A DNA stretch of 39,997 bases from an uncultured Gammaproteobacteria bacterium (GTDB lineage Bacteria; Patescibacteriota; Patescibacteriia; UBA1558; S5-K13), in NCBI GenBank assembly GCA_964636855.1, contig CAZWVD010000001.1, positions 1-39,997 of the forward strand. The letters run 5' to 3'. Below, piece after piece: positions 3,334 through 30,123 of the stretch. Every line of letters begins with the position of its first letter. Position 1 is the stretch's first letter. The translations under genes and the position numbers were made by a program. The notes under the pieces were generated by a model that was not told where the DNA came from, searched no databases, and saw only the letters and a program-made list of their open reading frames with translations.

Positions 3334-3548
3334 TGAATAACGGAATATTTAATGAAAAAGGTGAAAAGGTAGCAACTATAAACCAAGGGGTATGGCAAGG
3401 ATTTAATCCATTTACGCTTAAAATGCCAAGTATGCTTCCTTCTCCAGTTGGATTAATGGACAGGGTTGGTTCGTCAACTTACGTTCAAAGGATAGTAATT
3501 AGAGACGAACAGGATGCTAGGGTAATAATTGGAAACTTAAATATATGA
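3333..3548 (+). CDS. hypothetical protein (71 aa)
   Basis: Start overlaps the upstream stop (TAATG) and its end overlaps the next start, i.e. translational coupling. Confidence 0.55.
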   Translation: MNNGIFNEKGEKVATINQGVWQGFNPFTLKMPSMLPSPVGLMDRVGSSTYVQRIVIRDEQDARVIIGNLNI

Positions 3549-3919
3549 CAACGAGTGGAATAGAAGTATCCAGAAAAGGAAAGAGTGCGTTCTATTGTCC
3601 AGAAAAACAACTGGCGTTTACTTCTGAGAGAGAGAATATAAGGGTAGCTATTAACGATACATTTACAACTGATGTAGACGGATATTTCACAATTAATCAC
3701 AACTTAGGATATGTTCCACAGGTGATAATATTTGCGGAAAATACAGACCCTGCATGGGGAAAGGCGACGAAGCTTCCGGTAGACTGGAACAATAGAACAG
3801 AGTACGGTTTTTCGGCGTCGTATTCAGTAGACAATTACGATTTAATTTTACAAGTAAATTTTGTAGCACCAGTAAGTAGTGTTACTTTTAATTATTTTTT
3901 GTTAGTCAATGAGCAGTAG
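3545..3919 (+). CDS. hypothetical virion protein with H-x-L-G-Y-x-P domain
   Basis: 124 aa. Motif FTINHNLGYVPQVIIF is shared with the next gene. Confidence 0.65.
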   Translation: MTTSGIEVSRKGKSAFYCPEKQLAFTSERENIRVAINDTFTTDVDGYFTINHNLGYVPQVIIFAENTDPAWGKATKLPVDWNNRTEYGFSASYSVDNYDLILQVNFVAPVSSVTFNYFLLVNEQ

Positions 3920-17407: not shown

Positions 17408-17893
17408 TTATGATTCCAATGAACGCTCAGTTAATAAACTATCAATGTAAGATTCTAAATGTTGTTTACATTCAAGGTCTTGTTCTTTTGTAAGTCTCTT
17501 AGCACCCTGTTCTACGCTTATAAAGAAGCTATCCATCCCGTATAGAAAATGTCCTATTCCAAAATGTACGGCACATCTTTTAAGTGCATCACTTACTGCG
17601 TCTTTCATGGGTTCTTTACTAAGTTCACTATTAGGATATCCCACATCTTCTCTAATACAATTGCTAATTTCTAGCTTTCCATGTACAAATCCATTAGCTT
17701 CCTCAAATTTAAACGACCATCCAAAAATTCCCAAGGCATCGTTAAGTCTTTTCTGTACTGCCCTAGCATCTATGTGGTACGTAATCATTGCGAATGTTCC
17801 TCTTTGCGTAGTCATAATGTTATTAATCTTCCAAGAAATGTCCTCAACTGCAAACGGAGCTGTAAGCAATTTTGAGATATCGGTATTTGGCAT
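17408..17893 (-). CDS. Rad52/Sak-like single-strand annealing protein
   Basis: YHIDARAVQKRLNDALGIFGWSF and AVSDALKRCAVHFGIGHFLY resemble Rad52-family SSAP signatures. Confidence 0.55.
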   Translation of the reverse strand: MPNTDISKLLTAPFAVEDISWKINNIMTTQRGTFAMITYHIDARAVQKRLNDALGIFGWSFKFEEANGFVHGKLEISNCIREDVGYPNSELSKEPMKDAVSDALKRCAVHFGIGHFLYGMDSFFISVEQGAKRLTKEQDLECKQHLESYIDSLLTERSLES

Positions 17894-18033
17894 TTAGTTA
17901 TAAATAATAATTTAATCAACCCATAGTACTACTAATCAACAAATATGTCAATAGATTCCATACAAATAATTTTGATTTATGTACTTGACTTATTTTGATT
18001 AGTATGATAATAGATATTATATATTATACTAAT

Positions 18034-18061
18034 GAGACAGAGATCTCGCAATCTCTGTCTC
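18034..18061. promoter_or_regulatory. perfect 11-bp palindrome hairpin in the divergent control region
   Basis: gagacagagat-ctcgca-atctctgtctc read directly. Lies between the divergently transcribed blocks. Confidence 0.5.
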
Positions 18062-18133
18062 AATTGAGCTAATTATATCATATTATTAGAAATTGTCAAT
18101 AGTTGTTTGTAATATTTTTAGATGAAATGATTA

Positions 18134-18162
18134 TTGACTTTGTTTGGTAAATAACCTATACT
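18134..18162 (+). promoter_or_regulatory. sigma70-type promoter TTGACT-17 nt-TATACT
   Basis: Spacer counted by hand. The -10 element ends 19 nt before the ATG at 18182. Confidence 0.5.
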
Positions 18163-18181
18163 TTTGTTTAGTTAAATTTTA

Positions 18182-18445
18182 ATGACTATCTGTATGGAAT
18201 TATCTGTAGAGCAATTAGAAGACAAGAGTATTTTCTTGACGTTACGTTTAGATATAAAAGACATAGAGGAATGTCCAATATCTGGTGAGGAGAAGAAACT
18301 TGCAGAGCAATTAACGGCCTCTGAAGGGGTTGGGAATAGAATGGCGGGATATGCGATTATTTGTAAAGTAATAGAAAATTCGCAATTAAAAGCGAAGAAG
18401 AAATCTAAAAACAAAATAGAGATTCCTTCATCTATAATACTTTAA
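18182..18445 (+). CDS. hypothetical early protein (87 aa)
   Basis: First ORF after the promoter. Preferred over the antisense 18172-18414 ORF on strand context. Confidence 0.5.
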   Translation: MTICMELSVEQLEDKSIFLTLRLDIKDIEECPISGEEKKLAEQLTASEGVGNRMAGYAIICKVIENSQLKAKKKSKNKIEIPSSIIL

Positions 18446-18464: not shown

Positions 18465-19766
18465 ATGGTGGACGCTCAGATTGAGAGGTCTGTTATTTCT
18501 GCAGCAATATCAGATCCTAAAATTATGTATGAAGCCGTGTTATCTTTAAAGCCAGAGTATCTGTCTGATGGGAATGCAAGGACAACGTGGGAATACATAC
18601 AGCCTATAGTAAGAGGTGGCGGTACGGTAGATTGGTTAGATATGAGTTCTAGCGAAAAACTAATGTATTTAGAAGATCCGATTACAAAGAAAGATCTGAT
18701 TGAAGGGGTTGATTATAGTAGCAAATTAGAGTCTATAGTTCAAGACGGAAAGGCATACGAATTATACTCCGTGCTTATTGACCAGACCGTAGATATAAAT
18801 GGAGCTAACTTACAACAGAAATTATCTAACATACAAGAAGCAATATCCAAAGCATATGTAGGAGATGACGATTCTGACAATGTTGATAATCTACTTACAC
18901 TATGGGGAGATTTACATAATCAATTTTCCGAGAACGGTAAGTTGGCCGTGTTTGGTATAAAATCAATAGATTCTGTAGTTGGAGGAATTGCACCTGGATG
19001 GGTGTGTACTGTAGTATCTGCGCCCGGGGTAGGAAAGTCTGCATTGGCAATACAATCGTTTTTAGAATCAATGAAGCTTGGAGTATCATCGGTATTGATC
19101 TCTACGGAAATGTCAAGAGAAGAAAACTTGGCTAGAATGATTGCAAGGGAGTCTGGAGTTGATACAACCAGTTGTATAACGGGGAGATTCTCTGGTCCAG
19201 ACGATGAACGTAAAGCGAAAGAAACTGCTGCTAAAATAGTTGAACTATTAAAATCTACTAAATCTAGAATATATGATAAATATATAAATATAAATGATAT
19301 TGTATGGACATGTAAGTTATGTAAAATGAAGTTAGGTACAAAATATTTTATCATTGACCACATGCATGAAATACAACACGATAAATCTGCCTCTGAATAT
19401 GAAAGGTTAACCTATATAGCAAATGAAATAAAAGTATTGGCAAAGAATGAGAAACTTGCGATAATGTTGCTAGGACAAGTATCTGTATCTTCTAAATCAA
19501 TGAAGGATAGCGACAATATAGATGCTAAAGGTACTGGTGCAGTGAAGGAAAAGGCAACTATGTTTGTTAGGCTTAGAAGAAATACATTAGACCCGCAGGA
19601 CAAGGAATACATGACATTCTCGCTTATAAAAAATAGGTTTGGCTCTACTATGGAACAACCAGTTAAGATAAGCCTTAGGACCGGAAACCTTACTGAGACC
19701 GCATACAGAGTTCCAGAACCAGAAGAGCACTTGGATAGATATAGAAATACTTTTAATGGAATGTAA
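18465..19766 (+). CDS. dnaB: DnaB-like replicative helicase
   Basis: GIKSIDSVVGGIAPGWVCTVVSAPGVGKSALAIQ (Walker A), FIIDHMHE (Walker B-like). Size is 433 aa. Confidence 0.8.
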   Translation: MVDAQIERSVISAAISDPKIMYEAVLSLKPEYLSDGNARTTWEYIQPIVRGGGTVDWLDMSSSEKLMYLEDPITKKDLIEGVDYSSKLESIVQDGKAYELYSVLIDQTVDINGANLQQKLSNIQEAISKAYVGDDDSDNVDNLLTLWGDLHNQFSENGKLAVFGIKSIDSVVGGIAPGWVCTVVSAPGVGKSALAIQSFLESMKLGVSSVLISTEMSREENLARMIARESGVDTTSCITGRFSGPDDERKAKETAAKIVELLKSTKSRIYDKYININDIVWTCKLCKMKLGTKYFIIDHMHEIQHDKSASEYERLTYIANEIKVLAKNEKLAIMLLGQVSVSSKSMKDSDNIDAKGTGAVKEKATMFVRLRRNTLDPQDKEYMTFSLIKNRFGSTMEQPVKISLRTGNLTETAYRVPEPEEHLDRYRNTFNGM

Positions 19767-27207: not shown

Positions 27208-27349
27208 ACTATTCAATAGACATTACAATTTGTACGACGAAAACGAGATCAATGTAATAATACCCGCCGAACAACCAAGCCAATTAATATTTGTTAGCAA
27301 CCAGGATCAAGGCACTAATAAACAACACAACAAAACAAAAAAGGACTAG
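27194..27349 (+). CDS. hypothetical small protein (51 aa), hand-called
   Basis: ATG 27194 to TAG 27347-27349. Overlaps the upstream stop and ends inside the bidirectional terminator. Confidence 0.35.
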   Translation: MIKIKLFNRHYNLYDENEINVIIPAEQPSQLIFVSNQDQGTNKQHNKTKKD

Positions 27350-27363
27350 TGTTTACTAGTCCT
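27342..27363. terminator. bidirectional rho-independent-type terminator
   Basis: aggactagt-gttt-actagtcct (9-bp stem) with an A-tract upstream and a T-rich tract downstream, between convergent genes. Confidence 0.6.
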
Positions 27364-27384
27364 TTATATTTATTACAATCTATT

Positions 27385-27543
27385 CTATTGTATTTCTTTA
27401 ATCCTAATATTAATCTGTAGTCCTAAACTCTTTAATCTATCAAAAATTTCTTGAGCCATTGAGCTTGTCATAACCTCATTATTGACTTGCACCGTAGCCT
27501 TGGGAGTTACTAAATAGAATTGGAATATTTTTGTACTTTCCAT
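27385..27543 (-). CDS. hypothetical small protein (52 aa), hand-called
   Basis: MESTKIFQFYLVTPKATVQVNNEVMTSSMAQEIFDRLKSLGLQINIRIKEIQ*. Tightly packed with its neighbours. Confidence 0.45.
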   Translation of the reverse strand: MESTKIFQFYLVTPKATVQVNNEVMTSSMAQEIFDRLKSLGLQINIRIKEIQ

Positions 27544-27561
27544 GTTATTTATATTTAAAAC

Positions 27562-27723
27562 TTAAATCAAAACTAACACTTGGTGCAAGCCACTATTATT
27601 AATCTTTATTTTAGCGGTTAAAACCTTGTCGCATTTAACAGTTTGAACGACTGTTTTACTAGAATAATATTTTAGCTCCTTCATTTTTTTATTGAAGTAA
27701 GCTACAAGCAGTTGATTATCCAT
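27562..27723 (-). CDS. hypothetical small protein (53 aa), hand-called
   Basis: MDNQLLVAYFNKKMKELKYYSSKTVVQTVKCDKVLTAKIKINNSGLHQVLVLI*. Confidence 0.45.
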   Translation of the reverse strand: MDNQLLVAYFNKKMKELKYYSSKTVVQTVKCDKVLTAKIKINNSGLHQVLVLI

Positions 27724-27724
27724 T

Positions 27725-27883
27725 TTATTTTAAAATCCAGATTAATATACAAATACTTTCAGCACCAACAATTAATAACCCACACTCAAATAGTTCTAAC
27801 CATAAACCATTTAATATATTATCAATTCTCGACCTATTACAGGCTTTCATATTCAATTCTCTAAATGTTACTTGACCCTTCAT
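27725..27883 (-). CDS. hypothetical small protein (52 aa) with hydrophobic C-terminus, hand-called
   Basis: MKGQVTFRELNMKACNRSRIDNILNGLWLELFECGLLIVGAESICILIWILK*. Confidence 0.45.
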   Translation of the reverse strand: MKGQVTFRELNMKACNRSRIDNILNGLWLELFECGLLIVGAESICILIWILK

Positions 27884-27892
27884 AGTTTTTTA

Positions 27893-28132
27893 TTATAATA
27901 AATTATATTCCGTTTTGTACTCAAATTCCGAACCATCTACGGTGCACTCATTTAATTCAATGTCAACTTCAACATCTTTTAGGTTATTATCTACCCAATA
28001 AAATACCCCAGAACCCTTACCATCACAGGCCAGGTTCATTTCAAATTCTGCCAACCCCTCAGCCAATCCGTACGACTGGAAGCCTCTTGCTATAAGAGTA
28101 TTCAATAACTCTTGCTTTGCAGTACTATACAT
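27893..28132 (-). CDS. hypothetical acidic protein (79 aa)
   Basis: ORF-track entry. First gene after a minus-strand promoter. Confidence 0.6.
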   Translation of the reverse strand: MYSTAKQELLNTLIARGFQSYGLAEGLAEFEMNLACDGKGSGVFYWVDNNLKDVEVDIELNECTVDGSEFEYKTEYNLL

Positions 28133-28162
28133 AAAATATATTATTAATAACTTAATAATTAG

Positions 28163-28191
28163 ATTGAATCACATATACAAACCCTTGTCAA
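28163..28191 (-). promoter_or_regulatory. sigma70-type promoter TTGACA-17 nt-TTCAAT (minus strand)
   Basis: Read from the reverse complement. Spacer counted by hand. About 30 nt upstream of the ATG at 28132. Confidence 0.4.
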
Positions 28192-28350
28192 GTAATTCTA
28201 ATGTAAATTATCTCTAACTGCTATATTATATCTCCAAACCAAACATATAACAACTATTGTAAAGATATTACATACATTATCACACTGTATATATATGGAT
28301 CTATTCTAATCAAGAAGGATATTATTAATAGTATTAATCACTATACAACA

Positions 28351-28397
28351 ACTAATCTAATACTATCTAAAACTATATATTACTATTTAAATACTAC
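28351..28397. repeat. five helically phased ACTA(A/T/C) repeats
   Basis: ACTA starts at 28351, 28362, 28372, 28382 and 28393 (spacing 11, 10, 10, 11), followed by inverted AGTAT at 28405. Confidence 0.5.
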
Positions 28398-28626
28398 TTA
28401 TTATAGTATTCAATATGCATATAATGCTATTAGAGTAGTATTAGTTGTAGGGATTGATTGATATTGTTTGTTAAGAGGGATAGTTTAACATCTATTTTAT
28501 GTTATCAACTCAACACTTTCACTACTACCATCTACTACTATTTACTATGGGGTACCACAGTCAGATTCTGATTGTAGTATTATAGGTATCTTTTACTCAC
28601 TCATGGAATTTTCTGTATATTGTATA

Positions 28627-28653
28627 AAAGAGAGTAATGTATTTACTCTCTTT
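28627..28653. other. perfect 11-bp hairpin aaagagagtaa-tgtat-ttactctcttt
   Basis: Read directly. Lies in the ORF-free region. Confidence 0.5.
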
Positions 28654-29100
28654 ATCATATACTACAGTAATATTAGAGTAGAATAGTATTAGACGACAAG
28701 GATTAAATCCCTGTTAGGAGATGGCTAGTTGAGACACTAGTTTACCAGTTATAGATATTACCATTTATACTTACTAACTCTTTATTAAGAATTATCCAGT
28801 AATGGGCTCAGGTCTTCCTGTCTAGCCCTAGTAGTTAAAGACGGTCAATAGCTATTGCTATCACATCACTTGTAAACCCCCGTAGCGGTTTATTTCTTTG
28901 GGGACCAGACCTATAACCTTCGTGTTATATAACATCCTCGTCTGAGAGCTGACTTAATTCGCACTCATGTCAGGAATTTGTATTTTCTATGTTTAGAATA
29001 TATCAATACGTATACCGCTTGTCAATACCGTGTAATGCAAGGTACTGATTTATGTTGTTGTATAGGCATAAATATCTTTACCATTTGCCGTCACTATTAT

Positions 29101-29178
29101 TGGACTTGCCGAGAATCGAACTCGGGTATCTACTGCCACTCGTTTAAAGTCTTACAGTAGGCTATTCCTTTCAAGCCC
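29101..29178 (-). pseudogene. tRNA-like element: canonical acceptor stem and T-arm, aberrant D/anticodon region
   Basis: Minus strand GGGCTTG...CCGAG-TTCGATT-CTCGG-CAAGTCC-A. I could not fold a 5-bp/7-nt anticodon arm. Confidence 0.4.
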
Positions 29179-29293
29179 GTATTATAATATACTCACCCTT
29201 CAATTATATATCATTTCAAATTGAAGAGAATAATCAGCTCTCAACCACTATTTAAGGATAATGATTAAGGGTGAATATACTTTAATAATACAA

Positions 29294-29360
29294 TGTAGTT
29301 GACAATGGGATTTGAACCCATAAGTCTCACGGTTTAACCAGTTAACCTATATCAACTACA
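29294..29360 (-). pseudogene. tRNA-like element lacking an anticodon arm (three-way junction)
   Basis: 11-bp closing stem, D-like hairpin GGTT-AACTGGTTA-AACC and T-arm ATGGG-TTCAAAT-CCCAT. Only 8 nt lie between the D-like and T hairpins. Confidence 0.4.
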
Positions 29361-29508
29361 TTCTATTATTAATATACTTTATTATTTCATTTATTTTCAT
29401 ACCTATTAACCATAACATATAATGAATGCCACCCTTATTAATCGCACCCCATTTATAGCCTTCATCTACTGGTAGTAATTCAATCTTGTTATCTATCTGA
29501 TTAACCAT
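29356..29508 (-). CDS. hypothetical small protein (50 aa), hand-called
   Basis: MVNQIDNKIELLPVDEGYKWGAINKGGIHYMLWLIGMKINEIIKYINNRM*. Its stop lies inside the 5' flank of the tRNA-like element. Confidence 0.3.
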   Translation of the reverse strand: MVNQIDNKIELLPVDEGYKWGAINKGGIHYMLWLIGMKINEIIKYINNRM

Positions 29509-29610
29509 TTTTATTATTTCAAATAATTTAACTATACAATGTAATTGCTATTTCGTTACAGGAAATCACCCTGTTTACTTATACTCCCCCTTAAATTATC
29601 AAGGTCTATA

Positions 29611-29681
29611 TTCTGAGGCCTAGACTCGAACTAAGATTTTATGGTCCAGAGCCACATGTACTACCTTTATACTACCTTAGA
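29611..29681 (-). tRNA. tRNA-Gln (anticodon CTG)
   Basis: Hand-folded cloverleaf: acceptor TCTAAGG/CCTCAGA (one A-C mismatch, U1-A72), D-loop with GG, anticodon loop CTCTGGA, T-loop TTCGAGT. 71 nt. Confidence 0.75.
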
Positions 29682-29692
29682 TCATTGTACTC

Positions 29693-29766
29693 TGGCAGAC
29701 TACTGAGGAATCGAACCCCAACTAACTCTTTTGGAGAGAGTCGTCATACCATTAGACCAGTAATCT
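29693..29766 (-). tRNA. tRNA-Trp (anticodon CCA), CCA end encoded
   Basis: Acceptor AGATTAC/GTAGTCT, anticodon arm ACTCT-CTCCAAA-AGAGT, T-arm TGGGG-TTCGATT-CCTCA, discriminator G then CCA. 74 nt. Confidence 0.85.
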
Positions 29767-29769
29767 ATA

Positions 29770-29844
29770 AGCACAAAGTAGGATTTGAACCTACGGATAG
29801 AAGGGTTGCGGCCTACCGTGTTTACCAAACTTCACCATTTGTGC
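29770..29844 (-). tRNA. tRNA-Cys (anticodon GCA) with unusual C33
   Basis: Perfect acceptor GCACAAA/TTTGTGC, discriminator T (U73, as in E. coli tRNA-Cys), T-arm GTAGG-TTCAAAT-CCTAC. The anticodon loop is CCGCAAC and the stem has one T-T mismatch. Confidence 0.7.
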
Positions 29845-30123
29845 AAGGAGAGATACTCAGATATCTATTACAATGAAGTCGCTACATATCTCTCCGTATT
29901 GTTCATAAAGAACATATATTTGTAAGTCTTCATCATATAGTGGACTGTTGCCTGTATTGAGTTACTTCATAAACAGGACTTATTTAGTTGTTCGTTATAC
30001 CCAGTCCAAGTATAATATAATACAGCGCAAAGATGTAACCTATCCTGTATACGCGAATTAGTGCTCTATATTTCTAGAGAGCATACAAATGTTATTATAA
30101 AAGTTATATTTTGTCAAGAGCGA

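Follow-up and report, generated by a model that had tools for sequence, protein, structure and literature searches.

We analysed a 39,997-nt stretch of phage DNA (the window), which forms the first part of a 43.2-kb contig binned into a 1.04-Mb, 103-contig assembly, and within it a gene-free stretch of about 1 kb at 28133-29100 (the gap), which follows a cluster of tRNA genes. A first-pass annotation, made from the letters of the sequence, had proposed the gap as a candidate large structured non-coding RNA, an origin, or both. Our leading interpretation is instead a composite one, in which the right part of the gap would be transcribed into an untranslated RNA and the left part would control, at the level of DNA, the four tiny genes next to it; we hold it tentatively, as somewhat short of probable. 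The contig is that of a tailed phage and encodes a large terminase, an SU10-type portal, a DnaB-type helicase, amidoligase/amidotransferase pairs and a cytosine methylase. Open reading frames (ORFs) run off both of its ends, and a check for circular closure found no terminal overlap.

The gap belongs to a minus-strand block headed by a strong promoter at 31492-31464. Along the direction of transcription the block comprises an ATP-grasp ligase gene, three tiny genes, a promoter-like site (30117-30089), tRNA-Cys, tRNA-Trp and tRNA-Gln, followed by a 50-amino-acid (aa) ORF, a pair of aberrant tRNA-like elements that enclose a hairpin (29356-29098), the gap and, last, four tiny genes and a terminator. 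Within 750 nt of the gap, on the same strand, there are three tRNAs and two tRNA-like elements. The features of the gap itself are the following:

28997-29025, minus strand: sigma-70-type promoter, TTGACA-17-TATATT with a TG-extended -10, 11/12, predicted start at about 28990
28690-28975, minus strand: segment of about nine short hairpins, the core of the first-pass observation
28620-28652, minus strand: terminator-like hairpin AAAGAGAGUAA-AUACA-UUACUCUCUUU followed by UAUAC, dG -16.6 kcal/mol, z -5.9
28620-29097, minus strand: candidate non-coding RNA, about 370 nt from the internal promoter or about 475 nt as the 3' trailer of tRNA-like element 2
28133-28619, no strand assigned: AT-rich left half, containing the contig GC minimum, period-10 arrays and promoter-like sites
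28357-28365 (minus), 28436-28444 (plus) and 28684-28692 (plus), span 28357-28692: cluster of the word TAGTATTAG, a candidate protein-binding word

The gap is genuine non-coding DNA. The first-pass description of about 1 kb without long ORFs beside the tRNAs is correct: in a coverage scan of the whole window, 28133-28977 is the sole stretch of at least 300 nt without an ORF of at least 50 aa on either strand, and all further coding checks came back empty. The ORF list likewise agrees that 28133-29100 contains a single ORF of at least 60 aa (28978-29160, plus strand), which the annotation had dismissed; it starts with TTG and runs antisense to a tRNA-like element. Stop codons are dense across all six frames, no small ORF of at least 12 aa in the gap is preceded by a Shine-Dalgarno motif, and the six-frame translation, with X at stops, matched nothing in PHROG at E<=1, which led us to reject a pseudogene. 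Hidden coding by way of another genetic code was rejected as well: recoding as TAG=Q or as TGA=W (table 4) opens no credible ORF in the gap, and the remainder of the phage reads well under table 11.

We regard the promoter at 29025-28997 as probably genuine and place its start near 28990. The contig has six matches of like quality that also carry the TG; of the five others, four stand immediately before a gene or operon and point the right way (31492(-), 18099(-), 20330(+) and 16547(-), the ATP-grasp operon being among those headed in this way), which argues for this one too. At the other end of the candidate RNA, none of 200 shuffles was as stable as the hairpin at 28652-28620. The terminator scan found no terminator-like site between 29098 and 28652, so that read-through from the tRNA cluster would be expected to reach this hairpin. 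A search within the contig for targets of the candidate RNA found no complementarity of at least 19 nt. We also note that the -10/start region of the promoter (28979-29002) and the 5' arm of the hairpin (28638-28661) are 79% alike over 24 nt, sharing the minus-strand pattern TATAT..AAA.A.AG.AAATACA, a likeness that may be due to chance.

Two features downstream of the gap bear on how the hairpin is to be read:

27385-28132, minus strand: four tiny genes (79, 52, 53 and 52 aa) from the ORF list
27340-27365, both strands: strong bidirectional terminator from the terminator scan, closing the four tiny genes

The 79-aa protein, encoded by the first gene past the gap, has no homologue among 5.8 billion proteins. 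The hairpin at 28652-28620 resembles the terminator at 27340-27365 in its A-tract/stem/T-tract style, with a shorter T-run; taken as an 8-bp stem, it has the tail UUUUAUAC. This weak U-tract, missed by the terminator scan, speaks for a different explanation, in which the hairpin is a conditional terminator, the 29025 promoter drives the four tiny genes (28132-27385) and the 370-nt RNA with its hairpin is a long cis-acting regulatory leader, working by attenuation or by phage-controlled antitermination in the style of lambdoid early operons. It would fit that the next strong classic terminator, at 27340-27365, lies past the small genes, and that between 28620 and 28133 there are only weaker promoter-like sites (at most 10/12). 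However, the 5' untranslated region would then be about 860 nt long, which is very long for a compact phage, and about 490 nt of DNA with 20-25% GC separate the hairpin from the first gene. Moreover, no antiterminator gene and no nut/put-like motif was recognised, and Rfam is empty here. We consider a leader rather unlikely, by either of the two mechanisms.

The composite reading leans in part on how the right part folds. Because z values of the size found here also arise in coding DNA, the folding backgrounds were drawn from the contig itself. The hairpins listed in the first-pass annotation are all present where it had placed them, including the 8-bp helix at 28696-28714 with one G-U pair on the minus strand. 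Folded as a whole, the minus strand of the segment yields z values between -3.2 and -3.4, the plus strand values between -0.4 and -1.5. When pairs may span at most 40 nt, E is -67.0 and z -3.07 for 28690-28975(-), and 1 of 300 shuffles matches it in stability; the estimate is optimistic, since the ends of the segment were set after the hairpins had been seen. By this local measure the segment comes 6th among 300 contig windows, none of which has a lower absolute energy, and the plus strand gives -1.4 to -1.6. What exceeds chance is the stability of the hairpins and not their number (9, against a shuffle mean of 8.6). The 150-nt window 28551-28700, which contains the terminator-like hairpin, also stands out, at z -2.9. 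Single-sequence folds predict mostly a row of short hairpins. The folding signal is strand-specific and moderate, it is no structural outlier, and we regard it as suggestive.

The first-pass annotation had suggested that these hairpins belong to a large minus-strand non-coding RNA co-transcribed with the tRNAs. Much of this stands. The region is non-coding and sits downstream of the tRNAs on their strand, no terminator separates the two, the folding is strand-specific, and the far boundary looks like a terminator; all this makes plausible a non-coding RNA read from the minus strand, possibly in one transcript with the tRNAs. The words "large" and "ornate" fare less well, given about nine short hairpins with moderate statistics. 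The annotation had also remarked that the GOLLD and ROOL RNAs are typically found next to tRNA genes, and the literature agrees, placing them often near tRNAs and also in prophages (PMC5737381). Membership in these or in any other known class, which the annotation could not establish by eye, found no support in Rfam. Rfam release 15 was applied at the gathering score to the whole window, and at E<=10 to 27800-30000 and to 28560-29100 (541 nt, with lax filters). Inside the gap no family was found at the gathering score or at E<=10; the few listings (a miRNA, snoRNAs, NEAT1) are eukaryotic, fall far under their cut-offs and are due to chance. GOLLD (RF01998) and ROOL (RF03087) were each rejected for want of a covariance-model match at E<=10.

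A single folded RNA of 500-1000 nt, of the GOLLD/ROOL kind, with a sophisticated function and co-transcribed with the tRNAs, seems to us very unlikely on this evidence. The tRNA-adjacent location in a phage does match the habit of those RNAs (PMC5737381), the folding excess is specific to the minus strand, and with 29098-29360 added the structured stretch would extend to about 740 nt. Against this, neither GOLLD, ROOL nor any other Rfam family appears at E<=10, even with lax filters on the 541 nt, and the predicted row of short hairpins has no multistem junctions. The left half has no local folding signal (z -0.6 to -0.8 for pairs of at most 40 nt; -0.4 to +1.6 for the 150-nt windows of 28101-28400), a strong promoter lies inside the putative RNA, and no homologues back any long-range pair. 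The large-ornate-RNA reading is unproven.

In composition it is the left half that is unusual. The contig-wide GC minimum is at 28126-28425 (20.3%, against a mean of 35%), and GC stays at 20-25% all the way between 28620 and 28133. The first-pass annotation had called the right half richer in GC than its flanks; the contrast is real (38% against 20.3%), but at the 78th percentile of the contig 28700-28999 is ordinary for this phage, and the extreme lies to its left. The left half further contains period-10 arrays at 28355-28396 and 28522-28547 (TRF) and promoter-like sites that score 9-10/12, for example the minus-strand site 28253-28225 (TTGTTA-17-TATAAT, 10/12). All three copies of TAGTATTAG in the 40-kb window are confined to 336 nt, in mixed orientation and at irregular spacing (79 and 248 nt from start to start). 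The 14-mer TAGARTAGTATTAG has exact copies at 28431 and 28679, each enclosing one TAGTATTAG, and the 8-mer TAGTATTA occurs 5 times in 570 nt, compared with 3 times in the other 42.6 kb. We take the TAGTATTAG words as candidate protein-binding sites. AA/TT phasing at 10-11 bp is not region-wide, and such phasing as a mark of bent DNA was rejected, the gap being no outlier in the test.

These properties could also be those of a DNA-level element lying chiefly in the left half, either a replication origin (an unwinding region with repeated binding words) or a virion DNA end with an early-promoter cluster. Such an element would be consistent with the contig GC minimum, as for an AT-rich unwinding region, with the clustering of TAGTATTAG and TAGARTAGTATTAG words in both orientations and with the short period-10 arrays; the tiny orphan genes that follow are typical of early regions, and in a contig that does not close on itself the real ends of the genome are not fixed. 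On the other hand, helical phasing does not extend across the region, good word copies number only two or three and are irregularly spaced, and GC skew across the contig merely tracks gene orientation. For an origin in particular, the DnaB-like helicase gene (18465-19766) is about 8 kb away, and the immediate neighbours are tRNAs and tiny orphan genes, not an initiator. The GC-normal, hairpin-rich and promoter-bearing right half would also be left unexplained. We regard a DNA-level element as an improbable account of the gap, and an origin would come into question solely for its AT-rich left half. Elsewhere in the contig, the second most AT-rich stretch (17876-18200, 22.7% GC) lies between divergent genes and just upstream of the helicase block; it carries a perfect 12/12 promoter (18099-18072, minus strand) and the inverted repeat GAGACAGAGATCTCGCAATCTCTGTCTC, and is an alternative candidate for an origin or main control region.

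Upstream of the gap, the features nearest to the candidate RNA are these:

30089-30117, minus strand: promoter-like site TTGACA-17-TAACAT, 10/12, in front of the tRNA cluster
29611-29844, minus strand: tRNA-Gln(CTG), tRNA-Trp(CCA) and tRNA-Cys(GCA), called by ARAGORN, Rfam 54-55 bits, upstream of the gap on the same strand
29297-29356, minus strand: tRNA-like element 1, with acceptor, D and T arms and about 9 nt in the place of the anticodon arm
29182-29290, minus strand: branched hairpin between the two tRNA-like elements, about 107 nt, with a 15-bp stem whose G-U pairs are minus-strand-specific
29098-29178, minus strand: tRNA-like element 2, with a 7-bp acceptor stem including G3:U70, discriminator A and a T-arm

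The structural outlier of the contig sits here, at 29098-29360, just outside the gap. Among the contig's 150-nt windows none is more extreme than 29151-29300(-) (z -5.2), and among the scored 375-nt windows, which cover the contig from 21,493 onward, none is more extreme than 28993-29367(-) (z -6.2). The region 29090-29360(-) as a whole has z -5.57, with 0 of 200 shuffles as stable, and folds into three adjacent domains. Element 1 (60 nt) scores 42.8 bits against the Rfam tRNA model, with 17 model positions replaced by 4 nt. Where element 2 should have its anticodon arm, it has a long stem capped by a 5-nt apical loop. ARAGORN calls neither of the two, and no tmRNA. The pair G3:U70 together with a discriminator A is the identity set of alanine tRNA and tmRNA, and its presence in element 2 fits the sub-threshold match of this element to the Rfam tmRNA model (RF00023; 28.4 bits with a cut-off of 47), in which only the two model ends align. 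A tmRNA was nevertheless rejected, that match being the sole one and lying outside the gap, with ARAGORN empty. A host-tRNA origin of the two elements was also rejected, as they have T-loop words alone in common with host tRNAs. The 50-aa ORF that precedes them (29356-29508, minus strand) has a TAG stop overlapping the first base of element 1; it has neither a Shine-Dalgarno motif nor a PHROG match.

Two aberrant tRNA-like elements directly upstream raise the question of whether the gap is a non-functional remnant, left by decayed tRNA or protein genes in a tRNA cluster that gains and loses genes, with hairpins that are relics or chance. Related phages do have different tRNA sets in different places, and the folding signal is merely moderate. 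However, decayed tRNAs within the gap were rejected, the tRNA model having no match at E<=10 in 28133-29097; the six-frame PHROG search was empty, with stops dense in all frames; the promoter is intact and strong; and phages seldom keep 1 kb of junk, this being the only such gap in 40 kb. We find a remnant decidedly improbable.

A more ambitious possibility, which we consider doubtful, is that 29360-28620 forms one modular phage RNA locus of a kind absent from RNA databases. The two anticodon-less tRNA mimics, one of which (element 2) bears the alanine identity pair G3:U70 with A73, would then be cutting signals for host RNase P and RNase Z, and the locus would release two stable products, the branched hairpin of 107 nt and a hairpin-rich RNA of about 475 nt, which would act during infection, for example as anti-defence decoys or regulators. 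The same doubt covers all of these parts taken together.

The composite reading asks for less. Polymerase would enter the right part (29097 to 28620, minus strand) by read-through from the tRNA/tRNA-like cluster, which is possible because no terminator intervenes, and transcription would also start at the internal sigma-70 promoter 29025-28997, near 28990. It would halt, at least partly, at the hairpin and U-tract 28652-28620. Started at its own promoter, this hairpin-rich RNA would measure about 370 nt; cut by host tRNA-processing enzymes behind tRNA-like element 2, it would measure about 475 nt. What the sequence itself shows is the lack of coding, the promoter and hairpin sequences, the composition and the folding statistics; that the RNA is produced, its processing site, its stability and any function are inferred. 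We would class the RNA as an orphan phage small RNA, with no target assigned. The left part, 28620-28133, would be the promoter/operator region of the four tiny genes, with the TAGTATTAG words as its candidate protein-binding sites.

Several observations weigh against this composite reading. The selection of 28690-28975 after the fact biases the local folding test in its favour. By the 375-nt statistic, 28618-28992(-) reaches z -2.4, 10th of 114 contig windows. Of the non-overlapping 150-nt windows, 28701-28850 (z -0.95) and 28851-29000 (z +0.09) do not stand out, and coding windows reach comparable folding z-scores. The consensus terminator scan did not flag the hairpin at 28652-28620, because its T-run is short, and read-through past it into the small genes may occur, which would make the region a leader. 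Finally, no homologous DNA for the gap was found in any source searched.

Among these searches, blastn against phage records returned a match to tRNA-Trp only, and the rest of the assembly together with 100 related genomes gave only noise. The nearest relative of the ATP-grasp gene reaches 40% identity, and such genes sit in unrelated contexts without synteny. Phages related through the terminase (53-64% identical) have a common structural module and carry their tRNAs and gaps elsewhere; neither blastn nor nhmmer found anything like the gap in them, loci of phages with 53-62% terminase identity included. Exact and degenerate hairpin patterns, run against IMG/VR and a metagenome collection, gave one chance match in a high-GC coding region.

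Two of the relatives, L023 and L027, contain features of their own near a tRNA-Trp(CCA) gene. In L027, whose terminase is 53% identical, a TTGACT-17-TATAAT promoter in 3543-3780 (plus strand) leads into some 150 nt that a 9-bp long-range helix (ATCTGGGTG...CACCCAGAT) closes off, ahead of a small ribbon-helix-helix-like gene. The counterpart in L023 is without this insert, which may be a structured leader or small RNA. A called ORF with a weak NikA/ribbon-helix-helix-like match (L023 3862-4170 and L027 3216-3542, plus strand) spans the tRNA-Trp(CCA) gene (L023 4013-4087, L027 3373-3447), so that either the ORF is over-called or gene and tRNA overlap. Beside tRNA-Trp, both phages also have gene-free regions of about 500 nt (L023 3260-3860, L027 2770-3215) that are rich in G-run/C-run words (GGGGTATTTCCCC, TAGGGGGTRCCACA, GGTGAGGTGAGGTGAGGTG), which look like repeated protein-binding sites. 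These regions may be a functional counterpart of the control region in the window, to which they show no sequence similarity.

Taken as a whole, the main outcome is negative: the gap is outside every catalogued RNA family, and its structure is statistically not compelling. An orphan non-coding transcription unit with an AT-rich control region is a plausible description of it. Phage genomes are tightly packed, so a gene-free stretch of 1 kb is probably functional, and the candidate RNA, if real, would be an orphan addition to the poorly understood non-coding RNAs encoded beside phage tRNAs. The sequence is a singleton without relatives, and its value is that of a lead and not of a discovery.

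Known systems resemble the locus in different respects. With GOLLD (RF01998) and ROOL (RF03087), which are without known function, it shares a long ORF-free stretch near tRNAs in a phage, a likeness of context that is not diagnostic; it differs in having no covariance-model match at E<=10 and only a row of short hairpins with moderate statistics. Like a generic small RNA gene, the right part is an ORF-free segment between a strong sigma-70 promoter and a hairpin with U residues, although 370 nt is long for that class. Genomes of T7-type phages carry an early promoter cluster before tiny early genes at their left end, and the gap similarly combines an AT-rich ORF-free stretch and several promoter-like sites with tiny orphan genes closed by a strong terminator. 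Here, however, the best promoter (29025) stands 860 nt before the first gene with a hairpin between.

In position, the candidate is comparable to RNAC and RNAD of phage T4, since it lies directly downstream of phage tRNAs on the same strand; the comparison is one of position only. Those two stable RNAs, unexplained for decades, are about 120-140 nt long, whereas the candidate, as predicted from sequence, would have 370-475 nt and a promoter of its own. RNAC and RNAD are small RNAs that arise by transcription of T4's tRNA region and whose role is not known (PMC3014915).

The tRNA-like elements invite a last comparison, with MALAT1's mascRNA and with the tRNA-like/hairpin units that murid herpesvirus 68 carries, in which tRNA-shaped modules act as "punctuation". 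There, too, tRNA shapes with a defective anticodon arm flank other RNA; here 29098-29178 and 29297-29356 flank the 107-nt hairpin and precede the candidate RNA. Those systems are eukaryotic or belong to a eukaryotic virus, whereas in the phage processing is inferred and the elements lie outside the gap. By analogy, the tRNA-like elements could recruit tRNA-processing enzymes and in this way define RNA ends. If real, the candidate RNA, taken with the anticodon-less tRNA mimics beside it, could also provide an example on which tRNA-shaped signals for the processing of phage transcripts can be tested.

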